Source: a virus
Direction: 5' to 3' (one strand)
UHGV virus genome: UHGV-0357595
DNA length: 16,495 nucleotides
The notes under the pieces were generated by a model, which did not search any database, was not told the DNA's origin, and worked only from the letters and a program-made list of their open reading frames with translations. Shown here piece by piece: positions 1,078-4,658 of the stretch. Each line of letters begins with the position of its first letter. Positions within the stretch are counted from its first letter, which is position 1. The translations under genes were made by a program, and so were the position numbers.

Positions 1078-1497
1078 TTACTCCGGTGGGGGATTATCTT
1101 TAAGCCTGCCTCTCAAATATTTTTCTACATACTCATCGATTTCTTTTAGCCGGACTTCAAATAGCTCAATCATTCGTTGTTGTTCTGAGCCCGGTAGCTG
1201 GTTAAACAACTCAAGAAGTTTTCGTTGGGATTCATTTAACCACAATTCAGAAGATTCCTGTTCTCCAAATAGGAGCTCAGGAGGAGATATGCCAAGTGCC
1301 TTTCCCAATACGACAGCGTCATGCACTCCAACATTTCTGCTGCCCGCCTCATAGTTACCTATACGCGATTGCGTCCATCCGCAGATTTCAGCAAGTTTTC
1401 CTTGAGATAAACCAAGCTTCTGCCTGCGCTCTTTAAGACGCATTGCAATTTTGTCATTGAGCCTACTAGCGGCAATTTTTTCGTTTTCTTTTTCCAT
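1078..1497 (-). CDS. prophage repressor, HTH XRE/cI-like, no S24 peptidase domain (RacR-like architecture)
   Basis: 139-aa ORF; helix-turn-helix signature LGLSQGKLAEICGWTQSRIGNYEAG; C-terminal part is helical with no Ser/Lys autopeptidase motif; AGGA 5 nt upstream of the ATG; divergent from a Cro-like gene. Confidence 0.8.
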   Translation of the reverse strand: MEKENEKIAASRLNDKIAMRLKERRQKLGLSQGKLAEICGWTQSRIGNYEAGSRNVGVHDAVVLGKALGISPPELLFGEQESSELWLNESQRKLLELFNQLPGSEQQRMIELFEVRLKEIDEYVEKYLRGRLKDNPPPE

Positions 1498-2299: not shown

Positions 2300-2320
2300 T
2301 GTAACGCTGCGAGCGTTACA
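2300..2320. repeat. 21-bp palindrome TGTAACGCT-GCG-AGCGTTACA (copy 1, perfect arms)
   Basis: Perfect 9-bp inverted arms with a 3-bp spacer, 13 bp upstream of the initiator start codon. Confidence 0.7.
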
Positions 2321-2332
2321 AGGTGAAAACAA

Positions 2333-3121
2333 ATGGCTTCAAACTGGATAAAGCTCGAGGTTATTACGCCGGATAAGCCGGAAATATTCAGGCTTGCTGA
2401 GATTCTGAATATTGATCCAGATGCCGCATTAGGGAAGGTTATTCGCTTCTGGGCATGGGCGGATCAACAAATGATAGACGGTAATGCAGATTGTAACGCT
2501 CGCGGCGTTACAAAAAGTGCAATAGATCGCATCACTTTTATGGCTGGTTTTGCTGATGCGTTAATTCAGGTTGGATGGCTGGTCGAAAATGACGTTGGGC
2601 TTTCTCTACCTAACTTTGAACGTCATAACGGAAAAAGCTCTAAAAAACGGGCGGTTACAAACGAGCGAGTTACAAAAATACGCGAACTGAAACGAAAAGG
2701 TAACGCTGCCAGCGTTACACAAACGGATCAAAAAGCGTTACCAGAGGAAGAGGAAGAGGAAGATCTAAATACTGATCTCCCCCTAAATCCCCCTCGCCAA
2801 AAACGAGCGTCTAAAAAATTCGAGCCGGAGGCTATTGAGCTGCCCGATTGGTTGCCGGAAACACTCTGGCATGAGTGGGTCCGGTTCAGACAGGCATTGC
2901 GAAAACCGATTCGAACGGAGCAGGGCGCTAACGGGGCGATACGGGAACTGGAAAAATTCCGTCAGCAGGGTTTTACACCTGAGCAGGTGATTCGACACAG
3001 CATCGCCAATGAATACCAGGGCCTGTTCGCGCCGAAAGGTGTTCGGCCTGAGACGTTGCTCCGACAGGTTAACACCGTCTCGTTGCCGGACAGTGCGATC
3101 CCGCCAGGCTTCAGGGGGTAA
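2333..3121 (+). CDS. replication initiation / replisome-organiser protein (YdaU / O-like)
   Basis: 262-aa ORF directly upstream of a DnaC-like gene; contains the repeated palindromes in its coding sequence (as the lambda O gene contains ori); acidic EEEEEED stretch at 2744-2764. Confidence 0.65.
   Translation: MASNWIKLEVITPDKPEIFRLAEILNIDPDAALGKVIRFWAWADQQMIDGNADCNARGVTKSAIDRITFMAGFADALIQVGWLVENDVGLSLPNFERHNGKSSKKRAVTNERVTKIRELKRKGNAASVTQTDQKALPEEEEEEDLNTDLPLNPPRQKRASKKFEPEAIELPDWLPETLWHEWVRFRQALRKPIRTEQGANGAIRELEKFRQQGFTPEQVIRHSIANEYQGLFAPKGVRPETLLRQVNTVSLPDSAIPPGFRG
2492..2512. repeat. 21-bp palindrome TGTAACGCT-CGC-GGCGTTACA (copy 2)
   Basis: Same palindrome with one arm mismatch, inside the initiator coding sequence, 192 bp from copy 1. 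Confidence 0.7.
2699..2719. repeat. 21-bp palindrome GGTAACGCT-GCC-AGCGTTACA (copy 3)
   Basis: Same palindrome with one outer mismatch, inside the initiator coding sequence, 207 bp from copy 2; two extra GTTACAA half-sites lie at 2654-2660 and 2669-2675. Confidence 0.7.
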
Positions 3122-3127
3122 CAGACC

Positions 3128-3874
3128 ATGAAAAATATTGCGACAGGAGGCGTTCTGGAGCGTATCCGCAGACTGGCCCCACCACATGTAACCGCCCCAT
3201 TCAGAACGGTTGCGGAGTGGCGCGAGTGGCAACTTGCTGAAGGCCAGAAACGTAGCGAGGAGATCAACCGCCTGAATCGTCAGTTGCGGGTGGAAAAAAT
3301 TCTGAATCGCTCAGGCATCCAGCCGTTGCACCGTAAATGCTCGTTTGCGAATTACCAGGTGCAGAACGACGGCCAGCGATACGCGTTAAGCCAGGCGAAA
3401 TCCATCGCCGATGAACTGATGACCGGGTGTACAAATTTTGCGTTCAGCGGAAAACCTGGTACCGGGAAGAATCACTTAGCGGCAGCTATCGGGAATCGCC
3501 TGCTGAAAGACGGTCAGACAGTGATTGTGGTTACCGTGGCTGATGTTATGAGCGCCCTGCACGCCAGCTATGACGACGGGCAGTCAGGCGAAAAATTTTT
3601 GCGGGAACTGTGCGAAGTGGATCTGCTGGTTCTTGATGAAATTGGCATTCAGCGCGAGACGAAAAACGAGCAGGTGGTACTGCACCAGATTATTGATCGA
3701 CGGACAGCGTCGATGCGTAGCGTGGGAATGCTGACAAACCTGAACTATGAGGCCATGAAAACATTGCTCGGCGAGCGGATTATGGATCGCATGACCATGA
3801 ACGGCGGGCGATGGGTGAATTTTAACTGGGAGAGCTGGCGTCCGAATGTCGTCCAGCCAGGAATTGCGAAGTGA
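3128..3874 (+). CDS. DnaC-like helicase loader (IstB-like AAA+ ATPase)
   Basis: 248-aa ORF; Walker [16 protein letters not shown]; Walker B-like DLLVLDEIG; follows the initiator gene. Confidence 0.85.
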
Positions 3875-3896: not shown

Positions 3897-4658
3897 ATGG
3901 AGACTGTTTTTGACGCACTGAAAGCGATGGGAAAAGCCACATCCATAGAACTTGCTGCGCGACTTGATATCAGTCGTGAAGAGGTACTGAACGAGCTGTA
4001 GGAACTGAAAAAGGCTGGTTTTGTTGATAAAAGCGCGTACACCTGGCGTGTGGCTGATAACAACGTTCAGCAGGAACAGCCAGAGCAGGCAGAACTGCCG
4101 GAAGAAACCACCACGGCAACAGTCGCGAAAATTTCGGAGTGCGATTTAACTGCGGCGATTGAACAACGTGGGCCACAAACGGCGGATGAGTTGGCTACAT
4201 TGTTCGGTACCACATCACGCAAAGTAGCTTCAACGCTGGCAATGGCTATCAGCAAAGGACGCCTGATTCGCGTAAACCAGAACGGTAAATTTCGTTACTG
4301 CATACCGGGCGATAATTTACCAGCAGAGCCGAAAGCAGCATCGGTAGCGGAAACTGATGGTAAGGCCTTTCCTCAGCCCACAGGTGTTGCGTTACCAGTA
4401 CAGGAGGCTGCAACACAGGAAGATATTAAAACAGAAACGGTGGCGGACATTGTGCAGTCGCTGCCATCGTTTACTGAAACGCGAGCGGATGACCTGGTTT
4501 TACCATCGCTGCATATGGCAAACCGCGAACTGCGTCGGGCGAAAAATCATGTCCAGAAGTGGGAGCGAATCTGCGCCGCGCTGCGGGAGCTGAACAAGCA
4601 CCGGGATATTGTTCGACATATTTTCGATTCCTCCAGTCGTATTGTGTCGGAAAAGTGA
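3897..4658 (+). pseudogene. hypothetical protein interrupted by an in-frame amber (TAG) codon at 3999-4001
   Basis: ATG at 3897 with GGGAGG 8 nt upstream; the frame is open for 34 codons, hits TAG at 3999-4001, then stays open in the same frame to 4658; the downstream part has only a GTG at 4050 with no Shine-Dalgarno. Confidence 0.6.

Follow-up and report, generated by a model that had tools for sequence, protein, structure and literature searches.

A candidate lambda-like replication origin built from 7-bp repeats inside the initiator gene of a Rac-like prophage

In the present study, we analysed a stretch of viral DNA of 16,495 nucleotides (nt; UHGV-0357595, hereafter the window), which is a Rac-like lambdoid prophage of Escherichia coli, with regard to palindromic repeats lying in and just upstream of the gene for a replication initiator of 262 amino acids (aa), encoded at 2333-3121 on the plus strand. 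These palindromes are probably iterons for the N-terminal domain (N-domain) of the initiator, and the tight repeat cluster at 2651-2742, together with the purine-only tract that follows it at 2743-2763, would then be an origin of replication placed inside the gene, as is the origin (ori) of phage lambda. The repeats have a defined anatomy, are under selection at the DNA level and co-vary with the initiator lineage, and homologies were established for the domains of the protein. A preliminary description of this DNA had put forward the palindromes as candidate lambda-like origin iterons, and that proposal gains support from their conservation across phyla, the choice of synonymous codons, the use of three codon frames, the concerted change of the repeats and the geometry shared with lambda.

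Results

The window was searched with the pattern TGTAACGCT-N3-AGCGTTACA, allowing up to three mismatches. Exactly three matches were found, at 2300-2320 (no mismatch), 2492-2512 (one) and 2699-2719 (one), where 0.01 were expected, and none of 200 shuffled sequences reached three; the three copies of the preliminary description are present. For the 7-mer GCGTTAC the window has 10 copies where 1.5 would be expected, seven of them within 2301-2741. The true repeat unit is a core of 7 base pairs (bp), GTAACGC or its complement GCGTTAC, in a 12-bp register, and not a 21-bp iteron; each palindrome consists of two inverted cores whose starts are 12 bp apart. The perfect palindrome, TGTAACGCT-GCG-AGCGTTACA (site C, 2300-2320; cores at 2301-2307 forward and 2313-2319 reverse), is non-coding and adjoins the Shine-Dalgarno sequence AAGGTG. 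It had been placed just upstream of the initiator start, which is correct, although the gap from 2320 to the ATG at 2333 is 12 nt rather than 13 bp.

The two other sites are inside the coding sequence. Site A (2481-2512), in codons of the N-domain, holds forward cores at 2481 and 2493 and a reverse core at 2505, all in the 12-bp register. Its palindrome (2492-2512) reads TGTAACGCT-CGC-GGCGTTACA and is preceded by 12 bp by the one-mismatch core GTAATGC (2481-2487); the whole site encodes D-G-N-A-D-C-N-A-R-G-V-T. Site B (2651-2742), in the codons of the interdomain linker, opens with the degenerate cores GCGGTTACA (2651-2659) and CGAGTTACA (2666-2674), the latter containing a reverse core with one mismatch at 2667-2673, continues with the palindrome GGTAACGCT-GCC-AGCGTTACA (2699-2719; cores at 2700 forward and 2712 reverse) and closes with the inverted core AGCGTTACC (2734-2742). 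In this last element the exact reverse core at 2735-2741 is in another codon frame than the palindrome copies, and is followed by one C and then by the purine tract. Copies two and three of the palindrome share one codon frame of the open reading frame (ORF) 2333-3121 and encode C-N-A-R-G-V-T and G-N-A-A-S-V-T. The earlier inventory was accurate in the sites that it listed, including the GTTACAA half-sites (found at 2654-2660 and 2669-2675), but it overlooked the cores at 2481-2487, 2667-2673 and 2735-2741 as well as the tract at 2743-2763. Read on the minus strand (2718-2700), the third palindrome followed by CTTTTCGTTT has an intrinsic-terminator-like score, in antisense orientation. A direct repeat, AAAAACG(A/G)GCG...AAA, at 2643-2676 and 2799-2818 flanks the cluster and the tract on both sides and may be due to chance.

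The tract itself, AGAGGAAGAGGAAGAGGAAGA, is 21 nt long on the plus strand, encodes E-E-E-E-E-E-D and stands directly 3' of the final core, and no other purine run in the 16.5-kb window is as long; we propose that it would serve as the region of unwinding and helicase loading. As a control, lambda (NC_001416) was inspected, and its four annotated iterons are at nt 349-433 of O, followed by the coding-strand purine run AAAAGAAAAAAGAAAAGA. The counterparts in the window, cluster B at nt 319-410 of the ORF and the tract at nt 411-431, have the same orientation as in lambda. The spacing of the palindromes had been described as wide and unlike that of lambda, and this is true of the copies at 2300 and 2492; a tight, lambda-like cluster does exist, however, at 2651-2742 with its adjoining tract, and the puzzle of the spacing disappears because the 2300 and 2492 palindromes are distal extras to it.

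Relatives of the locus were chosen via an alignment of relatives and comprised 70 loci from contigs of one genome per species and 80 from viral contigs, to which specific phages were added later; core statistics were taken from 43 representatives sharing less than 85% identity. The family was found in enterobacteria, Serratia, Pantoea, Pectobacterium, Pseudomonas, Burkholderiales, Alcanivorax-like bacteria, Xanthomonas, Ralstonia and Vibrio phages, and also in Planctomycetes, Verrucomicrobia and an Ignavibacteria metagenome-assembled genome (MAG). Relatives of the N-domain fill 6,583 clusters at 50% identity (full HMMER scan, E<=1e-3). The preliminary description had recommended looking for the palindrome in related prophages, and the core proved to be conserved at the nucleotide level in initiator genes across phyla. 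Within -100 to +460 of the ORF start there are 212 copies of the locus-specific core (8.8 per kb), against 41 in the other 243 kb (0.17 per kb, with 0.12 expected at random), which is a 52-fold enrichment around the initiator start in diverged relatives of several phyla. Neighbouring cores are most often 12 bp apart (n=78), and spacings of 11 bp (n=15) and 23 bp (n=13) are also found.

Two positions are conserved. A palindrome at about nt 148-172 of the ORF, corresponding to site A, is present in most family members, and a cluster at about nt 335-430 corresponds to site B, where one to three direct cores are followed 12 bp on by an inverted core and 11 or 23 bp further by another inverted core. 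The upstream copy or array (-20 to -60), which corresponds to site C, is confined to the enterobacterial branch. A tract equivalent to that of the window (AGAGAAGAGAAGAG...) is the longest purine run of the locus of about 6.5 kb, both strands counted, in 32 of the 43 representatives, and it holds this rank also in genomes with 56-68% GC. Its sequence is AGAGGAAGAGG... in enterobacteria and AGAGAAGAGAAG... elsewhere, and the encoded peptide differs (EEEEEE, EKRRE or REEKRRE, in different frames) while the DNA stays alike. Inside the purine tracts, 52 of 54 Arg codons are AGA; this measure carries no evidential weight, being circular, because a purine run can only hold AGA or AGG.

Several other members of the family deserve description. 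Loci L033, L043, L050 and L065 of Verrucomicrobia, which include Akkermansia-related MAGs, keep the N-domain, and most of them have a single core at about -57 or at nt 160. On the chromosome of Stieleria magnilauensis there are two initiator modules (L020 and L021) about 44 kb apart with identical match statistics, which may represent a pair of related prophages or copies of one duplicated element. A search of PLSDB for a minimal replicon with the initiator returned two matches only, both of them phage-like circular elements. The 41-kb circular element of Pusillimonas sp. T7-7 (L160), deposited as a plasmid, is phage-like (cII, NinB, Rha) and has an initiator of this type followed by a gene for an 'ATP-binding protein'; it is possibly a phage-plasmid with the initiator module as its replicon.

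What is conserved at the cores is the DNA and not the peptide. At site A, compared in 34 representatives, the Asn codon is AAC in 28 of 28 (background 59%) and the Val codon with this Asn partner is GTT in 28 of 28 (background 28%), whereas in the six representatives where His (CAC) replaces Asn the Val codon is always GTG (background 35%). No mixed case, AAC with GTG or CAC with GTT, occurs among the 34, and the Ala codon is GCT in 25 of them (background 20%). The preliminary description had tied the cores inside the coding sequence to repeated N-A-x-x-V-T peptides, and copies two and three, which share a frame, both encode this motif. In the family as a whole all three codon frames are used, by 140, 37 and 14 cores. 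The site B cores of phage TL-2011b are read as V-T-Q, V-T-P and A-L-Q and not as N-A or V-T, and the junction string GTkAC-CAGAGAAGAGAAGAG is translated as A-L-P-E-K-R-R in L015 and as V-T-R-E-E-K-R-R in L040. The four-residue insertion 'NADC' around residue 51 of the window protein equals one extra 12-nt repeat unit at site A (2481-2492), and the linker of other lineages has one to three such units, translated as repeats of G-N-A-x; changes in iteron copy number therefore appear as four-residue insertions or deletions in the protein. Within E. coli, 14 of 49 core positions and 174 of 475 others were variable, a noisy comparison, inflated by insertions, deletions and truncated or interrupted copies, to which we give no weight.

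The cores also change in concert. In L035, L040, L049, L063, L064, L066 and Vibrio phage 1.211.A (L159), cores of the GTCAC type (GTCACGC) occupy both clusters, and the switch includes direct copies without a pairing partner. At least two independent switches are suggested by a rough neighbour-joining tree. A more distant branch, that of phages epsilon15 and phiPSA1, has an N-domain 33-34% identical and lacks both GTAACGC and N-A-x-x-V-T; its cores are TGTCCGC/GCGGACA in the same two-cluster layout, with one cluster in the N-domain codons. The linker cluster of these two phages runs forward, forward, reverse, reverse at 11-12 bp and ends directly at AGAGAAGAGAAGAGAAGAGAAGA. The three core types, GTAACGC, GTCACGC and TGTCCGC, track the lineages of the initiator N-domain. 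Sites that co-evolve with a binder encoded at the locus would be expected to behave in this way, and a model of hairpins alone offers no explanation. The codon of residue 51 (AAC for Asn, CAC for His) is inside site A, and its first base is the sole difference between GTAAC and GTCAC. The repeats are at nt 1250-1300 and 1530-1590 in epsilon15 (L156) and at the same offsets in phiPSA1 (L158). The TGTCCGC clusters with AGAGAAGAGAAGAGAAGAGAAGA are a candidate origin of epsilon15-like phages; in the fetched stretch of the epsilon15 RefSeq record, repressor and IHF sites are annotated nearby and no origin is annotated.

The initiator falls into phrog_2509, 'replication initiation protein' (E=3.9e-89), and into no Pfam family; it is made of an N-domain (aa 1-122, nt 2333-2698), an acidic linker between the N-domain and the C-terminal domain (C-domain), and a domain resembling the C-terminal domain of DnaT (aa 170-262, nt 2840-3118). 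No Pfam model matched the N-domain at E<=1 in 28 members. The predicted model of the N-domain shows a helical core with a beta hairpin, and a fold search gave weak matches, mostly to winged-helix proteins; in AlphaFold2 the loop encoded by site A (aa 50-57) has low confidence. The residues 170-262 matched the DnaT C-terminal domain, which binds single-stranded DNA (ssDNA), in phmmer (E=9.3e-5 for 2ru8 and 3.2e-4 for 9zbt), and PF17948 was found in 9 of 28 relatives. This DnaT domain forms filaments on ssDNA and marks the site of DnaB loading (PMC13377028, 2026).

The genes of the window are arranged in the order repressor, Cro-like YdaS, cII-like YdaT, initiator and DnaC-like loader YdaV. The helix-turn-helix repressor is at 1078-1497 (minus strand), YdaS at 1594-1836 and YdaT (PF06254) at 1833-2255. 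Downstream of the initiator, the YdaV-type helicase loader (3128-3874, plus strand) matches PF01695 IstB_IS21 (E=5e-20), NCBIfam PRK12377 (E=1e-153), DnaC (E=7e-91) and phrog_50, and is presumed to be the partner of the initiator. The region shares 94.6% identity with 'Escherichia phage Rac' (MN652886), and the full module was found in 679 of 5,426 complete E. coli genomes, with a match of 100% in E. coli CM2010-0578/1. A gene of the DUF1627 YdaW-like type (3897-4658), 3' of ydaV, has one in-frame TAG (3999-4001) after 34 codons, followed by 218 more codons in frame, which points to a cryptic prophage in decay or to an amber mutation. The box bound by YdaT is TTGATT-N6-AATCAA (PMC9986795; PMC11879457). 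A scan of the window gave matches at 1826-1843, with one mismatch and overlapping the ydaT start codon as in reports on K-12 Rac, and at 2252-2269, where a match with two mismatches, a level not above chance, overlaps the ydaT stop codon just 5' of the first palindrome.

The Rac prophage has been reported to hold an active origin, oriJ (PMC3945230). The ydaU gene of K-12 Rac matches the window initiator only over query positions 511-881, about 2760-3130 of the window, with 86% nucleotide identity, so the mosaic junction is at approximately 2760. K-12 YdaU has a DUF1376 N-domain and lacks GTAACGC; its linker codons hold TGTTCAAAC repeats of their own. Because only the part from about 2760 is shared, the N-domain and its repeats are exchanged as one specificity unit, and the C-domain goes with the loader. 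Identity of the present cluster with K-12 oriJ is ruled out by the other N-domain and the other repeats of K-12 YdaU, and the oriJ literature does not cover the window sequence, since the N-domain of the K-12 initiator differs and the motif is absent from it. In K-12 MG1655 Rac (L155), the repeats CTGTTCAGG, ATGTTCAAACA and GTGTTCAAACA and the inverted GTGTTTGAACA are found at about 2975-3080, in ydaU; these linker repeats are candidate iterons of the classical oriJ.

Discussion

If the palindromes are iterons, as we consider probable, the N-domain would read the 7-bp core, presumably as a dimer where two cores are inverted and possibly in head-to-tail fashion where they are direct copies, and extra direct or inverted cores in the 11-12 or 23-bp register would lengthen the array. 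Initiator oligomers would gather on site B, and their assembly there would strain or destabilise the adjoining GA-rich tract. The DnaT-C-terminal-like domains could then coat the exposed single strand and mark it as a loading site, to which the DnaC-like YdaV would deliver the host DnaB. Sites A (2492) and C (2300), about 200 bp apart, may be auxiliary, drawn into the complex by looping or used for control, and site C, which is next to the ribosome-binding site, could also limit expression of the initiator.

Some of our observations weigh against this origin and its proposed binder. The GTCAC switch may represent only two to three evolutionary events, as the neighbour-joining tree is weak, and the symmetric changes of the palindromes are equally expected of a hairpin. 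Neither the linker cluster nor the purine tract is present in the verrucomicrobial members; therefore their origin, if any, is organised differently. The tract of the window consists of about 52% A and 48% G with a local GC of 42-47%, and so lacks the AT-richness of a classical unwinding element. A conserved site such as A, inside the codons of the DNA-binding domain, is absent from lambda. In the literature, with most subscription journals outside the search, neither initiator binding nor origin activity was found for any member of the family.

A purely regulatory role had been mentioned in the preliminary description as an autoregulatory operator set. By binding the palindromes, the initiator or another phage regulator would repress the replication operon or block its transcription, and replication would in truth start elsewhere. 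Inverted repeats of the iteron sequence are autorepression operators in iteron plasmids, the three sites about 200 bp apart could loop, and site C is immediately 5' of the initiator ribosome-binding site. However, a simple consensus scan predicted no sigma-70-like promoter between ydaT and the initiator, the upstream site is found in the enterobacterial branch only while the conserved feature is the linker cluster with the purine tract, and the conserved abutment of this cluster to the tract in lambda-ori geometry has no obvious operator role. The operator is possible for the upstream copy alone, and as the whole explanation it is unlikely. That another protein binds the sites, such as the cII-like YdaT, the prophage repressor or a host factor, is decidedly unlikely in our judgement. 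The module does lie directly downstream of ydaT and the immunity region, but the motif accompanies the initiator N-domain in phages whose immunity regions are unrelated and whose hosts belong to different phyla, and it is missing where another N-domain has been swapped in, as in K-12 YdaU. A YdaT/cII operator in particular was rejected, since the palindromes do not fit TTGATT-N6-AATCAA and the YdaT boxes are elsewhere, at the ends of ydaT described above.

The palindromes could also act as hairpins in mRNA or ssDNA (in translation, mRNA stability, priming or cruciform signalling) and not as duplex binding sites. Each of them folds as ssDNA with a dG of -7.6 to -9.4 kcal/mol (z about -4), the pairing of Asn-to-His with GTT-to-GTG preserves complementarity, and the minus-strand hairpin at 2718-2700 with its T-rich tail scores as terminator-like. 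Against this, the core sequence itself is conserved across phyla beyond what pairing demands, many cores are unpaired direct repeats in the 12-bp register that switch along with the paired ones, the 3-nt spacer is free to vary, and the plus-strand hairpins have no T-run. We consider this account very unlikely; a known RNA family or a sense-strand terminator was rejected, as there was no Rfam match at E<=1 and the sole terminator-like match is on the minus strand. There remains a by-product of the repeated peptide N-A-x-x-V-T, or chance, which is hardly credible. In the protein alignment N51, A52, V59 and T60 are nearly invariant, as the peptide explanation would have it, but it was rejected as the cause because one copy is non-coding, the cores are in three frames and synonymous positions are fixed; moreover, the motif is absent from the epsilon15 branch, which has another iteron, and chance is excluded by the shuffles.

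In a stronger form of the iteron reading, overlapping codes would couple the initiator to its origin. Residue 51 would itself read the base that its codon contributes to the site, Asn for A and His for the G of C:G, so that one change would alter the site and the specificity of the protein together; conservation across phyla would concern primarily the origin DNA (cores and GA tract), which would dictate the motifs N-A-x-x-V-T and L-P-E/R-E-K-R-R-E. We think it improbable in this form, but if true, the overlap at residue 51 would be a built-in route to switching of origin specificity.

The putative origin is of the lambda style, placed within the initiator gene, but it belongs to an unrelated and very large family of initiators. 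No description of an origin for this family was found in the literature, and the junction sequences occur in no paper, in a search that left out most subscription journals. The traits that would set it apart are the 7-bp core in a 12-bp register, the conserved GA tract in place of an A-rich one, the extra conserved site in the codons of the DNA-binding domain and the DnaT-like effector domain. Should this reading hold, temperate phages of a very large group, covering epsilon15-like, Xanthomonas CP2-like, Pseudomonas and Ralstonia phages, would have a three-part origin defined by sequence (7-bp core, 12-bp register and GA tract), and with it a simple rule for locating such origins. It would also bring together site-specific origin binding, a DnaT-like domain for ssDNA and a DnaC-like loader, which bears on how DnaT-type domains mark helicase loading sites. 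Finally, it would be an unusually clear case of a DNA signal that constrains protein sequence over long evolutionary distances, and annotation and selection analyses should allow for that constraint.

Among the known systems, the iteron plasmids of the pPS10, F, P1 and R6K type have Rep proteins of winged-helix type that bind short repeats, with inverted repeats of the iteron sequence alongside direct ones. The present locus resembles them in having direct and inverted repeats of one sequence and in the co-variation of repeat and initiator. It differs in that their repeats are of 17-22 bp, against a 7-bp core here, and in that the repeats here are embedded in coding sequence; Pfam scans detected no Rep_3-type domain in the initiator, and DnaA boxes were not evident, although no search aimed at them was made. 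With E. coli DnaT it shares the C-terminal 93 residues, which match the DnaT C-terminal domain, and the dnaC-like gene that follows, as in the dnaT-dnaC operon. DnaT, however, is brought to forks by PriA and PriB and has no sequence-specific origin-binding domain, whereas targeting of the window initiator would come from its predicted site-specific N-domain. K-12 Rac is the same type of prophage with the same gene order (repressor, ydaS, ydaT, initiator, ydaV), and nucleotide identity with it is about 86% in ydaV and in the part of the initiator gene that encodes the C-terminal half.

A close parallel in organisation is lambda ori, of which the variants in Stx phages have six iterons. In both systems the repeats, which here would be binding sites, stand in the initiator's own gene between the codons of a DNA-binding N-domain and those of the C-domain, the sites have dyad symmetry, a coding-strand purine-rich tract is at a near-equal distance from the start codon, and the helicase-loader gene is next in the operon, so that the N-domain and the ori would be one specificity unit. 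In lambdoid origins, iterons and an AT-rich tract are located in the middle of O, and two iterons with the tract are sufficient for unwinding (PMC7466680). The two systems also differ. The window initiator is not a homologue of O, since its N-domain has no Phage_rep_O or HTH_36 match in Pfam and its C-domain is DnaT-like, and its loader is DnaC-like and not lambda P. Lambda has 18-bp iterons 20-24 bp apart and an A-rich tract, whereas the window has a 7-bp core in a 12-bp register, a GA repeat, and extra conserved sites in codons of the N-domain and, within enterobacteria, 5' of the gene.

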